From NCBI GenBank assembly GCA_958009085.1, contig OY253680.1, positions 124,001 to 188,000 of the forward strand: a stretch of 64,000 nt of DNA, in the 5' to 3' direction. Shown here piece after piece: positions 8,122-56,200 of the stretch (its first letter is position 1; the number at the start of each line of letters is the position of its first letter). This DNA comes from Protoeuglena noctilucae (taxonomy: Eukaryota). The notes below the pieces were generated by a model. That model ran no database searches. It had not been told where the DNA came from and worked only from the letters and a program-made list of their open reading frames with translations. A program made the position numbers and the translations under genes.

Positions 8122-10057
8122 TTAAGCCACGACGGCCACGGGTCGCGTGATGCGGATGGTCGAGGTCAGTCGCGGCGCCAACTCCTCATACTGCAAGCAA
8201 AATGATTATGTTTATTATCGATGCTAATGCTAAGCAGGGTCGGTACTCACACCCATGCCGCATACCTCCCGCCCGCACCCCATCTCACTGAACCCAGCCC
8301 CTGTGCCCCTTCCACACGCATCCCCGCCCTGCTCTCCTCTCACCAGCGTCCATATTAGTGCCGTCTGCAGCGACCGCTTCACGAACCTCGGCCCCAGCCC
8401 CGCCATGAGGACCGAGACGCCCTTGGAGCTGAGCTTGCGCACGGCAGCCGCCGTCACGCTCTGCAAGCACGGTGGGACAGGGGGCAGTGGCTGGCAGGCT
8501 CTGTTGACACAGTGGCAAAGGTGGCAGTCGTGACACAGTGGGCACTCGCTCGCTTTGTCTCTCGACTGCCCCCTCATGACTGTGCATATGTGCACACCCC
8601 AGTCCAGCCACAGTGTCATCCGACAACGATACCGTCAATGATATCACCAATCACCTTACCGCTGGCCTTGGCAGCCTCGGCGCTCTGCAGCTGCACCAAT
8701 ACCCCACCTATCGATACAAGCCATCCATCACAAATGTTGTCATTCGTATCATTTCTTATGATCACCTTGCCGCTGGCTTTCGCAGCCTCGGCGCTCTGCA
8801 GCTGCACGAAGGTGCGTACGACGTCCATGGGTTGGGTGGCCAGCGTCGCGCCCACGCTGCCGATGAGACTCGACACCAGATTCGTGGCGATGCCCTCGCC
8901 CAGGCGCTGCCCCAAGGCCGCCTTGGCCTCGCTGCGGGCGCAGGGGCAGAGGGGAGGAGGCGTCAAGTGCTCGTCCCTCGACACACAGTGTCTACAACGA
9001 CACGTGCGACCTAAGCATCTGAGCCAGCTGCACGCCCCTTGCTGAGGCCGCAGATGCACATACCATTTGTATAACAGCATCGTCATCGAGCATCGTCATC
9101 GAGTCATCCGTACATCATCACCGTAGTCACCTGTATATCATGAAGTAGAGCCCGGAGTAGGGCGCGTTGGTGAGGACGGTGGGGACCAGGCCCCGGAACA
9201 GACCGCGCACGCCTTCCTGCTTCACGATGCAGGACAGCGCATGGAACGTGTTGGCGTATCCCTGCGCGTTGCCCGCCTCCATGCGCGTCTTGACTACCTG
9301 GGGATCCATCAAAGGGAGTGATATATATTTTGTTATATGCCATATATATATCACATATGAAACATCGTATGCGAGTCGAGCCGGCTTTCTGACGTCAACC
9401 AGTGTGAAGCTTCAGGGCACGTGCCTTGCGTGAGCACGCAAAGCGCTCACCGTGACCGGGGTCATCAGCGCCGTCGTGGATCCCCGCGAGAGGGCCCCCG
9501 CCGCCAGCGCGAACATTCCGCCGAGCCTGTCCGGGTCCCCGCCGGCCGCGACCTGCCTCCGCTGCAAGACGGGCTTGAGCGTTTCGAGCACGACAAAGTG
9601 GAACCCCGATCCGATGCCCAGCCGCAGGACCGTGGGCTGAGTGCCCGCCCAGAAGTGCAACACTCCGCGAAGACCTTTGTCGCCGCGCGCGATGGCCACG
9701 ACCGCCTCGCGCAGCGTCGCGGATCGCCCGTCAATCGCCAGCGTCTGCGCCTTGGTCCTGGGAAGCCGAGGGGCGGGGAAGGAGTCGCGACAGGCTGTTG
9801 ACGACCTCATTCATGTAATAAAGAATGTCGTGCGGAGCCAAGCGACTCGGCAGCGGGGCCGCGGACGCCACGTTGGCTGCTGCGAGTCTGCGTCACCTGA
9901 GCACGTCGAGGGGCTGCAGGAGGATGCCGCTGACCATGCCCGATATCGATCCCGAAAGCACGCTACTGAGCGTGGATATGACGGGCTTGATATCGGACGT
10001 GGACGCCCCGGGAGCCTGCGAAGCGAGGGAACTACCAAACGGCGGATTAGCGGCCAT
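8122..10057 (-). CDS. Mitochondrial carrier family protein, SLC25A38/Hem25 (glycine carrier)-like
   Basis: Three carrier repeats (QPLDVLR, TPVTVVKTRME, QPMDVVRT), plus GLFRGLVPTVLTNAPYSGLYF and AGLGPRFVKRSLQTALIWTLYEE. TAA at 8122-8124. The subfamily call is from remembered motif similarity. Confidence 0.85.
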
Positions 10058-13841: not shown

Positions 13842-15431
13842 TCAGCAGCCAGACGTCTCTCCCGCCTCGCAACGGACTATGTTGCACGAGAAATGCGACA
13901 GGCGGCCGTCGCTGGTGCAACACAGGCCGTACCCCCTGCAATCGGCGATCTGCACGTCCCGCACCTCCGCCCGACCGCCATCCCGGCAAAATACGCCGTC
14001 ACCCTCGACCGTCCGCGTGATACTCCCACCCTCCACCACCACCTTGCTGCCCCGGCTGAGACAAGAGACGCCACACTGCTGACAGCCGGCGACCTGCACA
14101 CCCCGCAGCTCCACCTGCCCGCCCTCAAGGCATATCACACCGTCACCGTCCTCGACGCCAATGATGCTGCCCCCCTGCACCACCATCTTGCTGCCCTGGC
14201 TGCCGCAGAAGACGCCCGATGCTTGGCAGCGTGCTATCTGCACGTCCCGCACCTCCGCCTGCCCGCCCTCTCCGCATTTCACGCCGGCGCTATCAAAGCC
14301 CTTGCACCCAGCGATGCTGCCCCCTTGCATGACCAGCTTGCTGCCGTGCCCGAGGCTGGCCACCCCACTCGTCTGGCAATCTACGATCTGCACGCCCCGC
14401 ACCTCGGCCTGCCCGTGATCCAAGCACATCACGCCACCGTCCTCGACAGTCCCGGTAATGATGCCACCCTCCACGATTGCCTTGCTACCCTGCCCGACCG
14501 TGACGACGCCGCACTTCTGACAGTCAGCAATCCGCACGTCTCGCACCTCTGCCTGCCCGCCATCCTCACAAGACACCCCCATACCGGTCCTCGACCCCGA
14601 GATGCTGCCCCCCTGAACCACCACGTTGGTGCCCTGCCCTCTGCTGACAACGCCAGACCTCTCGTAATCGGACATCTGCGCGCCCCGCAGCTCCACCTCG
14701 CCGTTCCCAGAGCACGCCACAGCGTCACCACCTATCCCCTTGACACTACCGCCCTCCATGACCACCTTGCTGCCCTGCCCGTGATTGGCCACGCCGCCCT
14801 TCCGGCAGTCCGCGATCTGCACGTCCCGCAGCTCCACCTGCCCACCCTCAATGCACCACATGCCTTGGCCCCCAGATCCCGCAATGCTGCCACTATGCAC
14901 GACCACCTTGCTGCCCCGCCCTTTGCTACCGATGCCGGACTTCGGCGCATCGACGATGTGTACATCGCTGAGCATGACCTTGCCACCCTCGCACTGCACG
15001 CCCATCCCCACCGCCGTCACTCCCTCCAACCTCAGCACCCCGCCCCTGTACGCTGCCAGGAAACACACACCCGCCCCTGGGTCATCTGACGCCGCCCGCA
15101 GCGTCCCGTTGCGCACGGTGGCCACCGCGCCCTCGCCCCGGACTACAAGCTTGCGTGACAGCACGATCTCGCGGCTCCCCAGGTCCACGACGCCCCCCTT
15201 GGCCATCGCCCGCGCCAGCTCCTGTCCGCTCAACACTTGCCTGCGAGCCGCAACAAATGGTACGTGGCTTTGCGTTAATAACAGCATGATCGGCCCTCGC
15301 TGTGGACGTCGGTGTGACATGACCCTCTCTGGACCTCAGTCTCACCGAGCCTCGCCCGTTCCTGTGCCTTCAGCTGTCCCAGCCGGATCCAACGCACGCA
15401 TCTCTGCGTCCATCCCGCTCCCGCCAGCCAT
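13842..15431 (-). CDS. Right-handed parallel beta-helix (pectin-lyase-like fold) repeat protein
   Basis: One long exon carries about 8 repeats of 46-50 aa (CxxGGQxExRxVQIxxCxxxGVxxxGxGSKxVxxGGSI). A short first exon (MAGGSGMDAEM..) is probable; the start is uncertain. Confidence 0.75.
13890..15000. repeat. Coding tandem repeat, unit about 138-150 bp
   Basis: Recurrent DNA blocks such as CGATCTGCACGTCCCGCACCTC and CACCACCTTGCTGCCC at about 141-144 bp spacing. Confidence 0.85.
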
Positions 15432-16530: not shown

Positions 16531-19500
16531 ACCACCACCCCCTTGCGATCGGGGGTCCATTCCAGCAACAGAGTGCCTGCGCGGGTGGGGTAAGTGGGAT
16601 GGGGGTGAAAGATTAGGTCAAAGGTTGCATGAGTTGCAGGGCGCCACACATCGCTAGTATGCACTGTTAACTCCATGCTCCCCATCGCCCTCACCTCCTG
16701 CACACCGCGGGCACTGGTAGTGCTCCACCCTTTGCATGGCTTCCCAATCCAGGCCCACGCACTGCGGGATGAAGGTGGGAGGTGAGGGTCTTATCACTAA
16801 TTATCATTACCAATTGTAATAATTACTAATATTATTATCACCAATAATCATTAATTACCAATCATAGTTCTCACCTCCGGGTGCAGCCAGTCGTGGCACG
16901 CCTCGCACTGCACGAAGTTCCTCTCCTCGCTGTCGTCCGCCAGGCAAATGCAGTAGAGCTCCTCCCCTGCGGATGTGGAAAGTGGGGGACTCGGGTGGGA
17001 TATAAAGAGTGATAAAAATAATTAAAATAGAATATCAATAAAAATGTAATAATAAAATAACAATAGTATGACTAAAAGACAAAACTGACATATGTTACTA
17101 AATTTATTATAGTTATAGTAATAACAATAATCCTCATTCTCATGCCCCGCCACCCCCTCACCGTCCTCGTCGTAGATCCCCATGCCCACGGGCTGACCCC
17201 TGGGGCGCACCTTGCGCCGCTGCAGCACAGGGAGCGGATGAGTCTGATGAATCTCAATTATCAAATAAAAGATATAGATTTGCCCCACCACCCCACAACA
17301 CCCCCATCACAACCCCACTCGCCTTGGTGGCCCGCGTTTCAAACGCGTCGTCCTCCGGCGTGGGCGACAGGGGCAGACGGTGCATGGCCACCTCCAATTC
17401 AAACTCATCGTCTCTTCCCGAATTTAAATTCGAATTGGAATTCGAATCCCCGGACTTCCTTCCTCCCGCGTTGCTTAAGGGGTCGGGGCTGGCGGGCGGG
17501 GAGTTTGGGCCGGCGGGGGCGGGCGGGCGGTGGCCGGCGCCGTTTTCTGACAGCCGGTGGGGCTCGGAGCGGGGGTGCTTGCGGGAGGACTGCGGGGGCG
17601 GGGAGGGAGAGTATACTAACCGGGAGAGGTGTGTGTGTATGATGCGGAGGGGAGGGAGCTGGGAGTGGTGTGGGAAAGGATGGCGACAGGCGACAGGGGC
17701 AAGCGTTGACCTGTTAGTTATCATTACTACCATTGTAACTCTGAAAAGCCATTATTATAGTTCTAACGACCTCTCACCGGGTCCGGGAACTTGCCCTTGC
17801 GGTGGAAGAAGACGCCGCAGGGGTTGCAGACGAGGTGGGGGCCCACGTGGCGCCACTGCTTGGTCTGCGATCGTAGATGAGAGGAGATGAGGGTGAGAGT
17901 GATGGGCAATGACGGTTGTTATGGACAGGGTTGCAGACGATTGCTTGGTCTGCGTGAATGGATAAGGAGAGGAGAGATAGAATGGTGTGACGCAGTGACA
18001 GTGACAATTGCCATGGACAGGGGTGGCTGCAAAGCACGCCATGTGTCGCCACTCCTTGATTTGCGCATGAGTGATAGTCTCACCTTGGTCGACCCGCACG
18101 CGTGGCACTTCCCCGACAGCAACTCAACACGATCATTCATTCACTGTCAACACTATCATCCATTCACTCTCACCTTGGTCGACCCGCACGCGTGGCACTT
18201 CCCCGACAGCTTCTTGGGCGGACGCCCGCGGCCACGCACGGCGCCCCTGCGAGGGAGGCAGGGGCAGTGCGACTGTGCATGAGAGGCAGAGACGGTGGCA
18301 GTGACAGGGGAGGGCGGCAGTGCAGCGACAGTGCGGCTGTGCATGGTGGCAGTGACAGTGACGGGCAGAGAGGTGACGGTGGCGGTTCACGGTGGCAGTG
18401 CAGCAGTCGAGAGCTCAGCGTGGTGGTAAGCGTGGTTCCAACTGCACCCATCATCCGCGCTGGATACCACGCACCGCTGTGACAACGATGCTTGGTCTCA
18501 TCACACCCAACCAACCACCCCCGCTGTCACCCCACCCACACCCATCCCTCACCCCGCCCCTCTCCCCGATCCCCCCGCCCCCCCATTCCTGCCCTCATAG
18601 CTCCCCGCCGCCCCGCTCGCGTCGTCCCTCTTAACACTTGCAGCAGTGTTGGCTGGCTTGGATATGACTGAGCCGATGGCGGTGGATGGGCCGATGCCCA
18701 GCGTGGCGCTGCGGGGGGTGGAGAGGGGAGTGGGGAGGGTAGCAGTGAGGGGAGGGGGGCAAAGAGGGTAGCACACAGGGGTGCCATGAGGGGCTGTGGG
18801 CTAGTCGATGCCAATCGCCTTATCGCTCATTGCCAACAATGCATCACATCGCCTCATCCTACCGTCCTTCACCATTAACTCATCCCATCCCACCAATCAC
18901 CGTATGTGTTTCTCCGCCAGTGCGAAGAAGCACTCCATGTATGCCTTGAGGTACTCTGCCATATTGGGGTCCAAAGAGGCCCACACGACGTGGTGGAGCA
19001 GCCCAGTCACCACGCGGCTGCAGAGGGGTGAGGGAGATGATTGGAAGATGATGGGAAACGTCAGCAGGTAGCATCTGTGCGTGTGGGACATGAGAGGGTG
19101 TGACTCAAGGCGGGGGATGTTAGAGCTGCAAAGTGACATAGTGACGGGCAATCTAACAGCACAGGAAAATCAACCAAATCAACCCCTAACTCTCGTATGT
19201 TGAGGGAGAACCCCTCCCTATTTCCCAAAATGTCCCATGCTGCCCATAACAGATAGCATCAACACAACCCCTTCCTTACTCCTCACCGTATGTTGAGGGA
19301 AAAGCCCTCCCTATCTCCCACATTGTCCCCGCGCCACCCCCCGGCCGCCCCGTCCGCCCCCGCCGCCTCCATCCGCAACGTCGCGGGTTCGAACCCCGTC
19401 GTCGCCAGCGCCAGTTCCGCCCCCGCGTCGGCCCACGCCGGCCGTCCCGGCGGCGCCCTTCCCAGGCAAGCGGGGCAGGTGCAGGTGGGGAGGTGCGAGA

Positions 19501-26000: not shown

Positions 26001-29000
26001 TGTATACACGTCCCATTCTCTCTCCCTCACCTGTATGGCCCCCGACTCGAACAGCGTGTCCACCACCTCGCGCTCCACGGCCGGCATGCTCTCGTGCACA
26101 AACGCCACGCCGAACTGAGGGGGGCAGGGGGGGAGGGGAGATGTGAAGTGTCAGAGATGCAAACACTGTGATTGGATCATATCGTCATACAGTGTTTGAG
26201 GCATCAAATAGTCAAAGGCATCTCTCCACCCCTGCACCCATCGGTACCATCACCCGCGCCCCTCCAACCCACCCACCCATCCACCCCTACCCCTCACCTT
26301 CACCCCCTCTCCCCACTACCCCCACCCGCACCCCCACCCCACCCCCACTCCCACATCTCACCTGCAGCGCGTGCCAGAGCGCCTTGTCCCTGACCATCTC
26401 CACCACACCCACACCCATCCACCCCACTCACCCGCACCCCTCATCCCCCCACACACATCACCCACACCCCACACCCCTTCCCCCATGCAACCCACACCCC
26501 ACACCCCCTCCTCTCACCTGCAGCGCGTGCCTGAGCGCCTTGTCTTTGACCTTCTCCAGGTATGGCGCCAGCGACTCCGCGGGCACGTGCAGGAAGCGCC
26601 CCGGCTCCCCGTTGCTCGCCGCGAAGGTGAGGAGATCGAGGGCGGTGAGCCGCGCATGCTTGCGTGTGGGGACGAACACCAGCGCCGGCTTGGAGCCCTG
26701 CGCGTGGTTGACGATGGCGTTGAAGGCCGGCTTGGCCATGGCCTGCATACGGGCCTCGAAGTTCGACACGTCGAATCCCTGCACGTGGATCTCCAGCGGC
26801 ACGGGCCGGACGCCCGGCGGGAAGTTGAACAGGCAAGAGGCGGGGGCCCCGATCCACTCCCCCATGTCGCGCGCGTTGGCCACCGACGAAGCCAGCCCCA
26901 CGATGCGGATCGGGCGCTGCTGGAGGGAGGAGAGGAAGCGGGTGCGCGACACGGCCACCTCCATCACGTGCCCGCCCTCTCCGGACAGCAAGTGCAGCTC
27001 GTCGGCCACCAACAGCGCAACGTCCTGCACCGCCCGCCGCTGCCGCCAGCGCCGCGAGAGCATGTCCCACTGCTCCGCCGTGGCCAGGCACAGGTTGGAG
27101 CTCTCCAGGATTTTGTTATCCGCCGCGGGGGCGCCCGTGAGCGACCGCACCGCGAGCCCCAGCACCTTCCCGAACCGGGCCTCCCAGTCCCGCAGCCGCT
27201 CCCGCACGATCGCCTCCGTCGGCGCCACGTAGACGCAGCGCGCGGGGCACTTGCCCTCGAGCGCGCGCGAGAGCATGCGCAGCACGGCGAACTCGGCGCA
27301 TGCCGTCTTGCCGGAGCCGGTCGGGGCGGCGACCAGCACGTTGTCGTCCGTGTTGTAGAGCGCCGCGAAGACCTGCATCTGGATGGGGTTGAAGGTCCTC
27401 ACGCGGCCCTCGTAGATCGCCTCGAACTCGGCATTGCGAAGGGCCGAGATGGGCAGGGGCTGCAGGTCCAGTAGCTCGGTTGGCGGGGGGAACTTGGCAG
27501 GCAGCAGCAGTCGCTGGAAGGAGACGGGCAGCGTGGTCTCGGACTGCAGCCACCGGTCGGATACCACTCGGACGAAGTACTGGGGCGGGAGGGGCTCGGC
27601 GATGGGTACCGTGAAGGCGAGCGTGTGGTCTTCGCTCGCGTACTGGGCCCTCAGCAGGAAGAGCTCGTGGTGCAGCAGGACCTCGGAGTCGGCGTCTTCT
27701 ACCAGAACCCAGAAGGGCTCGACGAAGCCGTGGACCTTGTCGTCCCAGGCGAAGTCCGGCGTGATGGTGAGCTCGATGCGCACCACCGAGCGCGTGATGG
27801 GCTGCACGTGGGCCGACAGCTCCAGCTTGGGGAACTGGTGCACCAGGCGGTGCAGGCTCTTGCCCAGCTTAGGCATGCGGACCAGCTCCCCCAGCTCGGC
27901 GGGCGTCAAGTCATAGTACCGCTCCCACGCGATGTCCTTGCGCTCGATCTTCTGCAGGATCTCCGGCGGCACCCCCCGGAACTGCCGGAGCGGCGACTGC
28001 GACGCCCAGATGCGCCGCGTGACCATCTTGCACAGCGAGAGCGCCTTATCGGCCAGCTGCGCCCACCCCCGCCTCAGGCAGATCTCAAAAAGGCATCGTA
28101 CCAGCCGCCCCGCGCTCTGCGTGACGTAGACCATGTCGCTGGTCACCGCGAGGCCCTCCAGCTTGAGCCGGCTGATGTACGTCTGCAGAAGCATGTTGAT
28201 CTTGGCCGTCGGCTCCTCGATGCTCTCCTTGACCGGGATCGGAACCCGCTCCACCAGCTTGGCCAGCTCCTGCTTCTCCTCGTCGCGCACGAGGATGTAC
28301 TTGAACTCGTCCGAAAGCGCGAAGAGCCTCAGCAGGTCAATCTCCCCCATGGACGGCCGGAGGTGCTCGTTGTAGGTCGCGATGGTCGAGTGCGTGACGT
28401 AGTAGTGCGACGCGATGCGGCCCAGGTCGGTCGTCTGGATGGAACCCGACCGACGGTCGTAGCGCAGCAGGTTGTTCTTGTCCAACACCGACGCGGCCGT
28501 GTGAGCCAAGTCAGCCCGCCGCGACTCCAGCAGAGGGTCGCTGTCGGCCTCGTCCACCGGCAAGCCGTACAGCGTCGGGTTGCGCAGCATGCGGACGTAC
28601 AGGTACGTGTACCCCAGCCACTGCGCCGCCTCCTTCAGGTTGCTGACCGTGCCCAGCACCACCTCGGCGTTGAGGCTGTCGGCCAGCTTGCCCACCAGCT
28701 GCGACTCCACCGGGAGCTGCTGGTTGAGCAGGCTCAGGTAGAACTGCAGCTCGCCGTGGCCCGTCAGCACGATGCCCTCTCCGAACGTATCGTGCTGCGG
28801 GCGCCCGGCGCGCCCCAGCATCTGCATCATGTCCAGCATGGACAGCTGGTCCCACCCGGACTTGACCGGGTTGTACACCTCGGTCCCCTTGATGATGACC
28901 GTGTGGGCGGGGAGGTTGACGCCCCACGCGAGCGTGGCGGTCGACACCAACACCTGGATGTGGCGATCGGCGAACAGATCCTCCACCAGCTGCCGGTCCG

Positions 29001-32000
29001 ACCGCTGCATGCCCGCGTGGTGGATCGCGAAGCCGTGGGGGAGGAGGTCCTTGAGATCCGAGCTCTTGACGTCCTCGGATTCTGACTGGAGGATCTCGCG
29101 GCTGGCGGCGTCGTCGCGCATGAAACGCCCCATGATGTCCTTGGCCAGGCACTGGTCGCGGAGGTACTTGGCCGTCTGGGGGTGAGTGGGTGGGGGTGAG
29201 TGGGTGAGTGGGCGGGGTGGTGACTGACTGAAAGGGGCAGGGGTGGGGTAGGGCGTGGGTGCGGAGGGAGGGGGTGGGAGAGGTGACTAACTGATGAGGG
29301 TATTGGTGGGGGAAGAGGCGATGCACGGTGCAAGATTAGCAATGGCATGACCCATCAGCTAGGCCACGCAACGTGTCACGCCTGCAGCAGCACGTCACGA
29401 TCCTCACCTCGCACGCCCCCTTGCACTACCAGTAAACCAACACCTTAGTCCCTAACACGCAAACAAAATAGACGAACACCAGCCCATACGTGTCTAAGGC
29501 ACTCGCCTCCTTGCACTACTAGTGCACCAACACCCCAGCAATGACGAAGCAATCATACAAACACCGCCCCATGTCCCACTCGCCTTGGCCGTCTCCTTGC
29601 GCGAGTGCACGAACACCAGTATCTGGTGCTTCCCGGCCCTCTCCGCGACCTTCTCGTAGCATATCTCGTTCATGAGCTGGAACCGCTGCAGGGGCTTGCG
29701 CACCGTGATGCCGATGAACTGCTGCTCGAGCGGGCAGGGCCGGAACGAGTTGTCGAAGAAAAAGAGTCCCTTCTCGGGATCGACCCTCAGGAACGCCGCC
29801 ACGTCCTCGTAGTTGGGAAGCGTGGCCGACAGCCCCACCAGCCGGATCATCTCCTGGGTCGATTCGATCTGCCGCACCGTGCGCGCCACGATAGCCTCCA
29901 GCACGGGACCCCGATCGTCGTGCAGCAGGTGGATCTCGTCGATGATCAACAGCTTGACCAGGTTGGTGTACGTGCGGTCGCCGGACTTGCGCGTGATGAT
30001 GTCCCACTTCTCGGGGGTCGTCACGATGACCTGCGTGTCCTCAATCTCGGCCCGCGAGAGGTTCACGTCGCCCGTGAGCTCCCGGACCTTGATCCCGTAC
30101 GCCTCGAGTCGCTTGCCGAAGTTGCCCACCATCTCGGCCACCAGCGCCTTCATCGGCGCCACGTAGACGATCTTGAACGCCGACGTGTCGATCGTCCCGT
30201 CCTCCCGACGGTACAGCCCGACCGTGTGCATGATGGAGAGCATCGCCACGTTGGTCTTGCCGGCGCCCGTGGGGGCGCAGATGAGGAGGTTTTCACTTGA
30301 GAAGAGAGCGGTGTCGTACACCCGGCTCTGGATGCGGTTGAGCTGTTTCATGCCTGAAAAAGCGTCCCACGCCCACTCGGGCATGTCCGAAATGTTCACC
30401 AGGCGCTCTGCGGGGGCGGGGTGGGTGGGGGGTGTTGGTGGGTGGGGTGGGTGGGGACATGGTGAGGTGGGGTGGGTGGGGGCGTAGGGAGCAGTGAAGG
30501 GTGAGAGGTGGCATAGGGAGCATAGACGAGGTGAAGAGCTAAACATGCGGCGGCCAGCCAACGACAGCGCTTAGCAAATCACCAGCCAGCCACAGCGCTC
30601 GACCCCTCGCAACGACCCCAGTGGCCGCCACCCAGCCCCACCGCTTCCCCGCCCCCACCAACCTCGCAAAGCAAAGCAAACCCAGCAACCGCCTCACAAA
30701 CCTCACTCTCACAACCCCTCCTGGTAACAACCCCCCCCCCCCCCCCCCCCCCCTACTCACCCTTGTCCGCCATTGGCTTGGGCTTGAGCGCTGGCACGTG
30801 TACTTCCTCGTACCCCTTACGGGACATGCGGTAGGACCCGGGAAGCTCCACCTTCTTGTTGCTCATCAGCCGCCCGCCCTCGTGGAACTCGAGGTTCTCC
30901 AAATCCAGCTGCCGGCGCCCAGCCGCCGCGTCACCCGCCCCCGCGCCCTCGCCCGCCCCGTCGCGCCCCGCCCCCATGCGCTCCCGCAGCTTCCGCGCCT
31001 CGCTCTTGATCGCCCGCTCCGCCGCCGCCTGCCGCTCGCGCTTGGTGCCGCGCGTGGCGCGCAGGGCCTCCAGGATGGGCGCCGGCATGGCCGCCTCCAC
31101 CTCGGCGCGCTCCGCGTCGCTCTGGGCCCGCGCCAGCCGCGTGCACCACACCACCTTGTCTCGATTCCCCAAAAGCATCTTGATGAGCGGGAAGCGGTCA
31201 TAGTCGACCAGCGCCACCAGCTGCGACTCGACCTCCAAGTCCGGAGCGTCCGACCCCAGCAGCCCCAACACCTCATCCGCCAGGGACATGGCCTGGTTGG
31301 GATCCAGCGCACCCTCCCCGTACGCCCGCGCCACCTCCCGCTGCAGCCAGTACGCGTCGATGTCCTGGGGGTTCAGCCCCGCGTCGCCGTCGCCGTCGGC
31401 CCCCAAGTCGCGACGAGTGCGAATGTCGCCCTTGCCAAGCTCGTCCTCCTCGCCGCCCTCCTCGTCCTCGTCGCGGCCGTCCACCTCCTGCGATGACGAA
31501 CACGAACGATGTAGATGGTGAGTGGGTTCGCAAGGACCACCATGCTAACCCAACCAGGCAAAAACTCATGCGCCACGCCATGTCTGCTCCGCTCTGCTTC
31601 ACCCCAACCCATCTACCCCTACTTCTGTGTGATTGAATCCACTCCGTCGAATCTTACTCCTCACCAGCCAATGCGCCCCACACCCCACCACCCACGCACC
31701 CAACCCCACCCATCGCACACGCACCACCCAAGCCCCACCCCACACCACCACCAACCCCACCCCCACACCCCTCACCTCCGCCATGACGTCGTCCGGATCC
31801 CCCTGCTCCTCCTCCTCCTCGTCAAACTCCACCGCGACCCCAAACTCCTCGGCGTCGTGGTCCACGCCCGCGGCGTCCTTCTCCCTCTCCTCTTGCGTCG
31901 TGAAGTCCCCGATCAAATCCGAGATGGCGTGCAGCTCGCCGAAACGCTCCTCGGTCATCGATCCCAGCAGGCCCTCGAGCTCCTTTTTCTTCTGAGGGGC

Positions 32001-50201: not shown

Positions 50202-53200
50202 TCACGCCGCCATGGCCGTCATCGTTGCGATCTTCTGATCCACCGCAGCAATCTTCTCCTCCAAGACGGCCAGCTGCTGCCGCACCTCCCCCACCACGTC
50301 CGCCGGGGCCTTATCCACGAACTGCAGAAAGGTAGAAGTGAGAGGTTGACAAGCTGCGCCAGTCCACAAACTGCAAATCATGCAGCCCGCTCTTGTCAAT
50401 TGCTAGTAACTGGCAATCAACGACATCACTACCCCATCCCATGCCTCATCCGTTCCTCGCCTTGGGGTTCCCCAGCCTCGCCCTCAGCCCCTCGGCCTCC
50501 CCAGTCGCTATTCTTAATATGACTATCACCCATCACCAATCATAGTGCTATTGATACTCGCCTTGGTATTCTTCAGCCTGGCCCTCAGCCCCTCCACTCC
50601 CCATCGCCACTCCCATTTACCATTTACTATCTCCATCACCAACCCCAGTCACATCGATAGTACTACTCGCCTTGGGATTCTTCAGCCTCGCCCTCAGTCC
50701 CTCGGCCTCCTTGTCGATCTTCGCCCGCTGCCCTTTCAGTCTTTCGATTTCCTTAGCTGCATCAAACAGACCTGCCATGGGCAGGGAGACCTCCACACCC
50801 GGCATCACCACCAGCTGCACGGCGGCGTTGCTCTGAGGGAGAAGAGGGGTGTTGGGGTTGGGGTGATGGGGCGTGGGTGAGGCTAGGGGTGAGTGAGAGA
50901 GCTGGGGCAAGAGGTGGTGCATGAGTGTCGCTAATGGAGTGACTTGCAACCCTCACTCTCTTAAACCCTTTAAAACCCCTCACCACCACCCCACCCACCC
51001 CTCACCTGCCCCCCCGCCCCCTCACCTGCCCCAACCCCCCTCCCCACCACCCTCGTCCCCTCCCCAACCACATACCCCTCACCCTCACCACCCCACCCAT
51101 CACCCCCACCCCTCACCTGCCCCCCCGCCCCCTCCCCCACCACCCTTGTCCCCTCTTCCTCCAACTTGCACAGCAGCGCCACCAGGCCCATCTCCCGCTC
51201 CACCTCCCCCCGCAGCGCGGCGTCCTCGATGCAAATGGTGGCCGGGATGCGCCTTCCCAGCTCGACGTTGTACTCGGCTCTGGCGTTCCGCACCGACCGC
51301 ACGATGGCTTGGAGGGCGGCGTAGGAAGACTCGGCATCGGGGTCCCTGCGATGGGAAGGGGGGTGAATGGGTGTTGAATAGTAATGTTGTTGTATTTATC
51401 TTTATAATTACTTATACCATAATTCTTACCATAATAATGATAATCATAACAATACTCAACACACATATCACCACCTCCTCTCCGCAATTACCTGGGCAGG
51501 TCGTCCCTGGGCCACGGCTGCACCGTCAAACTGACCCCTTCTATGCGTGGCAATGCCAACCACAGCTCCTCGGTTACAAATGGCATCAGCGGGTGCAGCA
51601 ATCGGAGGAGCAGCTCGTAGCAGTATAGGGAGGTCTCGAGAGCAGCGGCCTTGCGGGCGGGGTCGCCTGGAGATGGGGGGGGTTGGGGAGGGGTGGAAGA
51701 GGGGGTGGTGTAAGGGGTGATGGGGGTGAGGGATGTGGGGTGGTTGAGGGGGGTGGGGTTGTGAGAGGGGTGTTGGGTGTGGTGGGAGGCAATGGGAGGC
51801 GGTGGTTGATATGCACAAGTAATATTGACGATCATATGGTGACGGCAAATAACACCACCGCGATATGCATTTATTGCTATTATACTAGCTATATTAATAA
51901 TAACAACAATCATTGCCCATTCTCTCACCCGAGTAGATGCGGTCCTTGGCGCTCTCGATGTACCAGTCGGCGAACTCTGACCAGAAGAAGTCATACAATA
52001 CCCTCCCAGCCTCTGCCATTTCCAGCTTGTCCAGAAGCGCAGTGACCCGCGACGCCACGGCATGTGTCTGGGACACCACCCAGCGCTCGGCCAGGGGGAG
52101 CTGGGAACGGGAAGGAGAAGGTACTACTGTTAATGATGATAGTAAAGTAATTGATATTGATATTGATAGTGATAGTGATAGTGATAGTGATATTGATATT
52201 GATATTGATATTGATAGTGATAGTGATAGTGATAGTGATAGTGATAGTGATAGTGATAGTGATAGTGATAGTGATATACCCCTCTCTCACCTCCCCCATC
52301 CTCTCCGGCACCGTCGCCGCCCTCTCCGCCATCTCCGCCACCTCGTCATCGGTCGAATCTTTCAGAGAGAATTCGAGGAACTTGCCCGCGTTCCACACCT
52401 TGTTGGTGAAGTTGCGGTTGGCAAGCACACGATCTAGGCTGAGGTTCAGGTCCTGGCCCACGGCCGTGCCGGTGGCAAGGGTGAACCTGGGGGGGAAGGG
52501 GGGTTGAGAGGGGGCGATTTACCAAAATTTGCATAATAACTATGATATTACTAATTACAATAATGTTCATTTCTATAAAAAAATTATCACAATTCATATT
52601 GAAATTTAAATACATTACCGTCAATATTCGACAACATCATAAACTATATAAGTATAAGTCCATAATCACTCACCTGCGAGCGTCGCATCCGTACTCGGCG
52701 ATGGTGTCCACCGGGTCCACGACGATGTCCAGCGACATGAGCAATATCTAGCTATAATTACACACATATATATAAACACTACTCACCTGAGAGCGTCGCA
52801 TCCGTACTCGGCAATGGTGTCCACCGGGTCCACCACGTTGCCCAGGGACTTGGACATCTTGCGACCCTTCTCGTCCCGCACTAGGCCATGCAGGAAGACG
52901 GTCTGGAAGGGGGGTTGGCCCGTGAACTGCGGGGGTGAGGGGTGGGGGTTGGGGTGAGGGTGGCAGTGGGGGTGGTGTTAAGGGTGGGGGTGGGGGTGGG
53001 GGTGAGGGTGGCAATGGTGAGAGTAACAGTCATCGCCACCCCTCACCTCAATGCCCATCATCATCACCACCCATTATAATCCATTATCCATCATCATTAC
53101 CCACGACCATCCCTCACCTCGATGCCCATCATGATCATCCTCGCCACCCAGAAGAAAAGGATGTCGTGGCCCGTCTCCAACACTGCATGGACAACACGGA

Positions 53201-56200
53201 TAGTAACATAGTAAGACCCTAACCCTAGAAAGGAGACAGAATAATACAGCTCATGTCACATCACATCACAGCTCATCTCACCCGTAGTCGGATAGTACTT
53301 TTTCAAATCCCCCGCCCCCTCCCCCGGCCACCCCAGGGTGCTAAAGGGCCACAGACCGGAGGAAAACCACGTGTCCAACACGTCAGGATCCTGTGTCAGA
53401 ATCACGCCGGGGCCGTGGCGGGCGCGGGCGAGCGACTCGGCCTCGGCTTGGGTGCGGGCGACGACGTAGGTGGAGGTGCTGGGGTGAGGGGAGAGGGGGT
53501 GGGGTGTTATGGGGTTGGTGTGTGGTGGTGGTGGTGATGGTGTAACCCTCGCTAACCCTTCCCATACACCAACCCCCCCTCACCGCCCCTCGTTCGCCTC
53601 CAATACACCGCACACAAACCTCCACCGCCATATACACCCCACCCCCATATACACCACCCTTACTCACCGCCCCTCGTTGGCCTCCCATGCCGCGTCCCCA
53701 TCACTCGCTACCCCACACTCTATAACCATTCTACAACCCAACCCCCCCTCCATACACCACCCCCCCTCACCGCCCCTCGTTGGCCTCCAGCGCCGCATCT
53801 GCCGCCTCCTTTGACTCGTGCACGTACCACACGGGGATGCGGTGTCCCCACCAGACCTGCCTCGAGATGCACCAGTCGCGGATGTTCTCCAGCCAGCCGT
53901 TGTAGATGCCCACGAAGCGCTGCGGGGGGTGAGTGGGGGGATGGGGGTGGGAGAGTAATTGCACACACAGACACACCCACACAATTACACCCGCACCCAC
54001 ACACACCACCCTACGCTCCCGTCCCGCACCTCACATCACTCACCCGCATCCACACCCACACCCACCCACCCACCCACCACTCACCTCCGGCAGTATCGTG
54101 ATGCTCCCGTCCCGCACCGCCCCCAGCGCCGGCTCCGCCAGCGGCTGCATTCTGACGAACCACTGCTCTGACACCATCGGCTCGACGATCTCGCCCCCGC
54201 GCTGGGAGCGGGGGACGCGGGTGACGTAGTCTTCCACTTTGATCACCAGGCCCTCCTTCTGTGGGTGGGAGGCGGGAGGGGTGATATGAGAGATGCGTAA
54301 GCAATGTGACGTAGTCCTGTACCTTGATAACCAGTCCCTCTTTCTGTGGGTGGGAGGTGAGGGGCCAGAGGGGTGACATGGGAGGGGTGACACGTTATCT
54401 ACTCTTACCACCAGGCCCTCCTGTGGGTGTGCCTGTGTATGTGTGGTGACACAGTGTGATATCAACACATGGATGCTTTGGTACGTACTGTGTAACGCGC
54501 GCCATGGCCATCGCCTCACCTCCATGTCTGCCCACAGCGCCTCCCTTGCTTTGAATCGGTCCAGGCCGGCGTACCTGCGACGATATACATGGGTAAGTGT
54601 GTTCATAAGTGAGTGGTTACTTGAGAAACGCCCCTCCACTGCAACACACAACAGCACTCGACACCCACCGCTCCACCCTTCACAACAACACGCACCTCCC
54701 CTCCGCCCCACCACCACTACATCCCCCCTTTACCCGCACCGCCCTGCCACCCTCACAACAACATCACCGCTCCACCCACTCCACCCTGCCACCCAACCGC
54801 ACCACCCCCTCATCCCTCACCTCCCCTCCACCCCTCAACGACAACAACCCCCCTCATCCGATCCCTCACCTCCCCGCCGCCTCGTTCATCGACCCGTCCC
54901 GGTTCATGATGCTGATGATGGGCAGGTCCAGGCGCTTGCCGATCTCCCAGTCATTCGGATCGTGGCCGGGGGTGATCTTCAAAGCGCCTGTCCCGAACTG
55001 CAAGCGATGAGCGATGGGGGTGGAGTGAGTGATGGAAGGGGGAGGGAGTGGTCATCAGAGCACCCGTCCTAAATTGCACACAATGGCACATCACATCTCG
55101 GCATCGGTGCAGCACAGAACAGCACAGCACGATTGCAGTGACACACAGCCATGACCACAGCATTACTCACCTCCATGTCCACGTACTCGTCCGCCACGAT
55201 GGGCACCGTGCGCCCGCCGGACATGGGCACCACGCACTCCTTGCCCACCAAGTGACGGTAGCGCTGCGGGGGAGACAGTGTGTAGTGTGCAGGTTGTGTC
55301 ATGTAGTGTGCCCTACCCCGTCGCCCACCCATCACCGTTCAACTGAGCTAGCTGTAAAAACCACCACAGCCACTAGCCCCTGTCTCCACCAACTAGCCCC
55401 TCGCCCACCCCACCCACGCCCTCTCACCTCGTCGTTGGGGTTGACCGCCACCGCGGTGTCTCCGAGGATGGTCTCGGGGCGCGTGGTGGCCACGGGGAGG
55501 AAGTCGCTGCCGCCGGCGACGGGGTACTTGAAGAAATAAAGCTTGCCTTTCTCCTCCGAGAAGTCCACCTCTGCGGATGGCCAACGACGGCGCAGTGGTA
55601 TTGCATTGCAATGGCGAGGGGACACGAGTCATGGATTGGCGCCGCGACGCGACCGGGCGACCTGGCTGGAGCACCAAGAGTTGCAAATAGCTCCATACAT
55701 GCAAAACGCCACACGCGCACCGATGTCGGAGACGGCCGTCTGCAGCGCGGGCGACCAGTTGACCATGTAGGCCCCGCGGTAGATGAGGCCCTTGTCGTGG
55801 AGCCGGACGAAGGCCTCCGCGACGCCCCGGCTGAGGTCCTCGTCCAGCGTGAAGCGCTCGCGGCTCCAGTCGCATGACGCGCCCAAGCGGCGAAGCTGCG
55901 ACAAGACGGCAGCGAACGTGATGCCCGCTGCAGCCTCGCGAAGCGCGGAAAGCAAGCAGCGCTACGCATGGAACAAGGTTGACACAACATGCTTCCATCG
56001 CGAACCTGCATCGTGATGAAGCCGCCGTACTCGCGCTTCCACTCCCACACTCGATCCACAAAGGCCTCGCGGCCCATTGCGAGCCGAGAGACGCCTTCCT
56101 TGGCCAGCATCTTCTCCACGACCATCTGCGGTCGGAACGGGTCACTGCGGTTATTGTTCGCACCTCAACCCGCGCCCGCCGGCCCCTGCTGTGGAGAGCC

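Follow-up and report, generated by a model that had tools for sequence, protein, structure and literature searches.

Changes in introns have reportedly been linked to internal gene duplications by Gao and Lynch in 2009 and to tandem genomic duplication by Hellsten and colleagues in 2011. A closely comparable system is intron 7 of human F7, which carries a 37-bp variable-number tandem repeat (VNTR) minisatellite whose first unit spans the exon 7/intron 7 border (Borensztajn et al. 2006, PMC1557585). Short intragenic tandem duplications have likewise been presented as a route of intron creation or relocation (Lehmann et al. 2010, PMC2891723; review PMC3443670), and green-algal tandem repeats are enriched near intron-exon junctions (Zhao et al. 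2014, PMC3887541), in each case according to the accessible part of the source. Here, a related arrangement is described in a 64,000-nt stretch of Protoeuglena noctilucae DNA (assembly GCA_958009085.1, contig OY253680.1, positions 124,001 to 188,000 of the forward strand; hereafter the window, in whose numbering all coordinates are given). On its minus strand, in the gene for a valyl-tRNA synthetase (ValRS), intron 7 ends in three successive copies of its own acceptor and the start of exon 8, and the copy attached to the rest of exon 8 is the one found spliced.

Intron 7 (54259..54519, 261 nt, GT..AG) begins with GTGAGG and is followed at its 3' end by exon 8 (54085..54258, 174 nt, ending ...ILPE); the preceding exon 7 occupies 54520..54574 and ends ...ADME. 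The whole intron is open in frame. Its last part consists of three consecutive units of ~80-85 nt, each with a C-rich pyrimidine tract, CACAG and 34-38 nt from the beginning of exon 8. The exon-like starts after CACAG fall at 54258 (A), 54343 (B) and 54420 (C), and the offsets from A of 85 nt, out of frame, for B and 162 nt, in frame, for C agree with those proposed in the initial annotation of this DNA, made from the sequence alone. Unit A (54221..54305) contains the working acceptor (AG at 54259-54260) and spans the junction, with 47 nt from the intron end and 38 nt from the start of exon 8. Unit B (54306..54390), a decoy, matches the real acceptor over 14 nt and continues with 38 exon-like nt, with a weak GTACAG (54317-54322) 21 nt after its exon-like start. 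Unit C (54391..54470), likewise a decoy, has CACAG and 34 exon-like nt, an extra AG 12 nt upstream and a donor-like GTAAGA (54403-54408) 12 nt after its exon-like start.

The alignment of A with B extends over 52 nt, the 14 nt preceding the AG and the 2 nt after it being identical. Within the 38 exon-derived nt there are 7 differences (82% identity), which amount to five synonymous codons and one Glu/Gln codon, as had been read from the letters. Unit C matches the exon perfectly over the initial 12 nt, beyond which it diverges and contains an indel; its identity to A is lower than that of B. It translates as EGLVVRVDN, again in line with the initial annotation. In that its units are not identical, the array departs from a VNTR. 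That the copies are real, as claimed, is evident from the shuffling controls: a 59-nt core of unit A aligned to the B region with a score of 34.5 and to the C region with 15.0, values reached by 0 of 2000 dinucleotide shuffles (maxima 14.5 for B and 12.0 for C). Similarly, the exon-8 start reached a score of 20.5 in its own intron, and none of the 14 other ValRS introns gave more than 9.0.

Evidence on splicing was taken from assembled contigs of four RNA runs, the metatranscriptomes X1, X2 and X3 from one study and X5 from a second, with joints listed down to 1 read in 100. X1, X2 and X3 each provided one zero-mismatch contig joining 54258 to 54520 (CT..AC on the plus strand, that is GT..AG on the gene strand), which establishes 54258 as the true exon start, as had been predicted. 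The X5 contig stops at 54260 with a 12-letter loose end, which together with 2 ambiguous letters corresponds to the first 14 nt of exon 7. None of the joints listed for the contigs of the four runs led to 54343, 54420 or 54432, although assemblies drop rare variants. Altogether, 15 RNA-contig joints define the ValRS exon model, and its translation starts with the entire P0001 (649/649 residues), an independently predicted database protein that is the sole 100%-identical entry and has no insertion at intron 7. The dominant transcript uses acceptor A, and both the contig joints and P0001 identify the copy attached to the real exon as the authentic spliced site of intron 7.

The host gene is an organellar-type ValRS. 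A protein database search with the exon-8 peptide gave 1339 matches at E≤0.001; the matches listed carry PF00133, PF08264 and PF10458 domains and many are named valyl-tRNA synthetase, so that class I synthetase domains and ValRS-named close homologues both point to a valine-tRNA ligase. Among the same matches, the closest named relatives of the peptide are chlorophyte green algae (73-84% identity, 58 residues). The N-terminus looks like a putative transit peptide. The window itself is eukaryotic and rich in GC (0.55-0.71 per 2 kb). Four runs of the source organism contain 0.98-0.99 of the words sampled from the 6.3-kb gene; in marine metatranscriptomes the figure is 0.33-0.40, roughly equal to the exon share. 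Most of intron 13 is occupied by a long (GATAGT/GATATT)n microsatellite (52107-52289).

The strength of the bypassed sites was evaluated with a weight matrix covering positions -20 to +3 and derived from the 14 other RNA-supported ValRS acceptors, which themselves score 9.6-19.0. With 10.2 for A, 9.9 for B and 1.8 for C, the proposal that two good upstream acceptors are passed over holds for B and fails for C: B is the only truly good-looking acceptor bypassed, and C is poor. Splicing to B would lengthen the mRNA by 85 nt and change the reading frame, and splicing to C would insert 162 nt without a stop codon. The donor-like site after C scores 6.2 and that after B -0.5, compared with 3.7-13.3 for real ValRS donors; micro-exon use of C is conceivable but unsupported. 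A 25-nt segment of unit A (54281..54305) contains two branch-site-like YTNAY motifs, with the A at -40 and -29, and the matching segment of unit B is ~10 nt shorter with a single YTNAY at -15. A putative branch site would lie in the 25-nt segment of unit A. An RNA structure hiding the decoys was considered and rejected, the predicted fold of intron 7 having z = +0.68, with 146 of 200 shuffles folding at least as well. As separate observations, the C-rich tract just upstream of the AG of B (54353-54362) is a 10-nt perfect complement of the 5' splice-site region of intron 7 (54514-54523), and several ValRS introns have CCTCACC-type motifs, complementary to the GGTGAGG donor consensus, close to their 3' ends.

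We consider it likely that intron 7 was lengthened by tolerated duplications spanning its junction with exon 8, the exon-attached acceptor being spliced and the upstream copies decaying. Such a history would involve two successive local, near-tandem duplications of an ~80-85-nt piece across the 3' end of the intron, carrying the pyrimidine tract and AG together with the opening ~38 nt of exon 8. A working mRNA would come only from the copy joined to the rest of exon 8, and only alleles splicing there would have survived. The upstream copies would in turn have become intronic, adding ~160 nt to intron 7, and would now be decaying, C presumably being the older one, whose acceptor quality has been lost, and B the younger, still good-looking one. 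B would be skipped probably because the branch site in the last unit lies downstream of its AG; the unit of B itself is without the matching branch segment, and no real exon follows it. Protein-level conservation of the decoys, as initially suggested, is not needed to account for the copies, as B is out of frame and both copies end after 34-38 nt.

Copies of this kind are not confined to intron 7. The 30 exon edges of the 15 RNA-supported ValRS introns were scored against the adjoining intron, with the other introns as control, and 5 of them have a copy scoring above every control: the acceptor edge of intron 7, the exon end plus donor of introns 9, 11 and 12 (which score 15-48.5, the controls reaching 8.5-10 at most), and an exact 16-nt piece of exon 8 in intron 8. 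Introns 16 and 17 contribute two more exon-end plus donor loci. In the resulting five donor-type loci of ValRS, the upstream exon end and its donor recur 71-113 nt downstream in one or two copies. All on the minus strand, these are found in intron 12 (52668-52739 vs 52781-52852), intron 11 (53036-53066 vs 53107-53137), intron 9 with two extra copies (53555-53612 and 53639-53696 vs 53742-53799), intron 17 with two extra copies of exon end plus GCGAGT (50429-50493 and 50530-50594 vs 50639-50703), and intron 16 with a 30-nt copy at 100% identity (50994-51023 vs 51105-51134). Intron 17 (50322-50670, minus strand) is a GC-AG intron with a GCGAGT donor, defined by loose ends in X1-X3. In every intron that can be decided by RNA or P0001 (7, 9, 11, 12 and 17), splicing uses the site adjoining the real exon. 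The exact 16-nt piece in intron 8 derives from the interior of exon 8 and lies 88 nt downstream without a donor (54015-54030 vs 54103-54118).

The whole window was further compared with itself at offsets of 30-500 nt, lengths of at least 28 nt and identities of at least 75%, and the 50 resulting rows were sorted by hand. About 27 represent low-complexity, microsatellite or in-exon repeats, 6 fall in a repeat region at 13.9-14.9 kb, one is unclear (784/861) and one is the focal array; the remainder constitute 13 donor-type loci, 5 in ValRS and 8 in other genes. The 64 kb consequently hold at least 14 junction-spanning copy loci, at a donor to acceptor ratio of roughly 13:1. The eight loci outside ValRS (8650/8761, 18078/18168, 19194/19287, 19850/19946, 20314/20434, 26342/26498, 29414/29504 and 39825/39867) have an open frame, presumably exonic, that continues up to a GT or GC donor, and offsets of 42-156 nt, and the decoy near 19194 has lost its GT. 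Pfam supports coding at three of them (Mito_carr at 8761, a Brr2/SNRNP200-like helicase at 26498 and 29504), 6 of the 9 proteins scanned for these loci being without a family.

Three pairs, 18078/18168 and 20314/20434 in other genes and 50994/51105 in ValRS, are 100% identical, so the duplication process is recent. Frames and stop codons vary among the ~13 other loci. Outside their own loci, the spacers of 10 repeat loci matched only low-complexity G/C-rich sequence within the 64-kb window, and an origin from introners or transposon-derived introns was set aside as no dispersed family of spacers was found within that window. Two of the donor-type copies lie in a gene for the Brr2/SNRNP200-like spliceosomal helicase (26461-30570, minus strand, 24 kb from ValRS), which has very long open exons, DEAD, Helicase_C, Sec63 and wHTH domains, and an apparent GC-AG intron with a GCGAGT donor at ~29570-29585 on the minus strand. 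Away from splice sites, 13948-14843 (plus-strand coordinates) contains repeats with periods of ~150 and ~290 nt that look like a putative repeat-domain coding region.

The process would accordingly seem common in this genome, mostly leaving copies of an exon end with its donor. Acceptor choice is commonly described by a first-AG scanning rule. If that rule applies here, and by analogy with the experiments on F7 intron 7 (PMC1557585), an extra downstream donor would be harmless as long as the first donor is used, and an extra upstream acceptor would usually be harmful and hence rare. The ~13:1 excess of donor copies would then be expected, because downstream donors do no harm while upstream acceptors usually capture splicing.

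A similar arrangement was found in a ValRS entry from a relative, P0002, a 127-residue open-frame call on a 9.6-kb contig that is 83% identical to exon 8. It holds an acceptor-like MVCS followed by 21 exon residues twice, 50 residues apart and with 24 of 25 residues identical; P0002 is an open-frame gene call merging a decoy with the real exon. Open-frame gene callers can thus fuse the two, which is a warning for annotation. The introns of P0002 differ from those of the window ValRS, with the acceptor ~40 nt further in, no intron between ILPE and RF and one after WLENIK, and these differences hint at fast intron turnover in the lineage. A metagenome scan for orthologous DNA yielded no close relative, the best 80 of 292 confirmed loci all being at ≤77% identity; we take these loci to be mainly bacterial ValRS. 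The third copy, C, was consequently taken as outgroup instead of a sister species. On this basis, B has 4 changes, 3 of them at codon position 3, and A has 1, which is synonymous, with 2 undecided.

The A/B differences had been singled out in the initial annotation as the strongest synonymous bias in the window. In this pair, 6 of the 7 differences are at codon position 3 and 1 is at position 1 (P=0.007 against one third), but the pair was picked for being that strongest case. The bias was evaluated in a pool of 9 exon/nearest-copy pairs (311 nt), from which the three identical pairs, two loci containing indels or of uncertain frame, the unclear locus, the exact 16-nt match in intron 8 and all second-order copies were excluded. 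Position 3 accounts for 21 of 35 differences in the pool (P=0.001 for a null of one third) and for 15 of 28 once the focal pair is removed. A null of one third is not appropriate for this share, because a difference may have arisen in either of two lineages, of which the real exon can change only at synonymous sites. For these codons and at equal rates, a constrained exon gives an expected position-3 share of 0.44 and a synonymous share of 0.36. Against a rounded 0.455, the pooled share has P=0.06, the focal pair alone P=0.04, and the eight other pairs P=0.25, and the third-position bias is thus not special to this site. In loci with three copies, all 4 differences common to both decoys are synonymous (3 in intron 9, 1 in intron 17), which points to a change on the exon side, and of the 11 decoy-specific differences, 4 (about one third) are at position 3. 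The third-position excess fits a real exon tolerating only synonymous change beside a freely decaying copy.

A number of observations nevertheless weigh against the history of tolerated duplications. About 26 nt of unit B cannot be aligned to unit A, so that the units are not clean tandem repeats, and the youngest pairs have a unique spacer between the copies that is absent after the second copy. End-joining with filler is therefore as likely a route as replication slippage, and unequal exchange is another candidate. At 5 of the 8 loci outside ValRS the exon status is putative, being deduced from the open frame and a GT or GC. YTNAY is absent from the last 70 nt in 5 of the 15 ValRS introns, so that no usable branch consensus emerged. 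Low-level use of B or C may be compatible with the contigs, since assemblies lose rare variants. Finally, 21 of 35 pooled differences are synonymous against the 0.36 expected (P=0.003), and leaving out the focal pair gives 15 of 28 (P=0.044). This modest excess goes beyond the simple constrained-exon model and remains unexplained. It is also an argument for a biological origin of the bias, in which the copies derive from an allele or paralogue that had diverged under protein constraint, or selection drove synonymous divergence of the exon edge from its decoy. The polarisation with C points the same way, as 3 of the 4 changes on the B lineage are at position 3 although B is intronic. Still, the numbers are small and include a focal pair chosen for its bias, the position-3 share of the other pairs fits the simple model, only about one third of the decoy-specific differences are at position 3, and the three identical pairs indicate that copies need not start diverged. 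We thus regard a biological origin of the synonymous bias as improbable.

Alternatively, the decoys might be working alternative splice sites that tune ValRS output. B could serve as a frameshifting poison acceptor (+85 nt) that directs transcripts to nonsense-mediated decay, in-frame micro-exons of 12 and 21 nt could arise at C and B, respectively, or C could give an in-frame 54-codon insertion. The local equality of the acceptors of A and B, the GT located a multiple of 3 nt after the start of both decoys (with that of C, at 6.2, inside the range of real donors) and the open frame of the 162-nt C-to-A stretch and of intron 7 as a whole are in agreement with such roles. Conversely, no corresponding joint is present in the contigs of the four runs, P0001 is without the insertion, the acceptor of C and the donor-like site after B score poorly (1.8 and -0.5), and the ~13 similar loci with their varied frames and stop codons favour a mutational by-product; regulated use of the decoys is unlikely on balance. 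Tandem mutually exclusive exons were rejected, as the copies span only 34-38 of 174 exon nt, B is offset by 85 nt and the contigs hold no alternative joints. Another possibility is that intron 7 itself was born by tandem duplication of an AGGT-containing exon segment (the Rogers model), the copies being its remains. Tandem duplication is, in the parts of the literature available, an established route of intron gain (PMC3443670; PMC2891723), and the intron positions do differ between the window ValRS and P0002. However, the end of the upstream exon is not copied in intron 7 (7.0 against a control maximum of 9.5), each unit starts with intron-type sequence and has its own AG, and exon 8 has no match in the donor or the rest of the initial ~100 nt of the intron. 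Intron 7 is therefore older than the duplications. Birth of the intron by duplication is largely refuted and extremely improbable, and lengthening of a pre-existing intron by tolerated junction-spanning duplications is retained as the preferred explanation.

More far-reaching is a joint reading, in which border-straddling duplications are ongoing and a major route of intron growth, a preference for the first donor and the last acceptor filters the survivors and produces the ~13:1 ratio of donor to acceptor copies, and exon edges diverge synonymously faster than neutral. This combination is doubtful; if true, it would imply either that selection favours exon edges distinguishable from their decoys or that the copies were derived from a diverged allele. 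Taken by itself, the focal locus is a commonplace outcome of duplication, and the density of such copies in the window is the more interesting lead. Still, the array provides a natural test of 3' splice-site choice, with locally identical acceptors 85 nt apart of which only the downstream one appears in transcripts. Together with a dozen nearby donor-side copies, it suggests a genome in which junction-spanning duplication often lengthens introns, and rules of splice-site choice could be read from the duplications that were tolerated.

Our literature search, in which subscription journals were sparsely covered, returned single-gene precedents and a repeat-density survey, and found no genome-scale account of exon-edge plus splice-site copies in an alga. 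The green-algal survey resembles the present case in dealing with GC-rich algal genomes whose introns are densest in tandem repeats, with an excess toward intron ends. It differs in that its accessible part treats short-motif repeats and their density and describes no units made of exon edge and splice site, nor site usage. The described cases of intron gain by tandem duplication, as far as their available text extends, share with ValRS an intragenic duplication that copies splice signals and an mRNA kept by the choice of splice site, but there introns were created or relocated, whereas ValRS intron 7 was merely lengthened with its position unchanged. In the accessible part of its report, F7 intron 7 is likewise composed of units starting across an exon-intron border, with an authentic site beside look-alikes, which stay silent in F7, and the exon-attached site being used, and the donor-type loci of the window match it closely. 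It is different in that the focal ValRS case is on the acceptor side, so the 5'-to-3' donor-scanning rule does not apply, that the ValRS units have diverged (82% for B, less for C), and that silence of the look-alikes is here suggested by contigs and not by mutagenesis. In our best reading, the focal locus joins this known kind, a junction-spanning repeat with pseudo splice sites of the F7 type.

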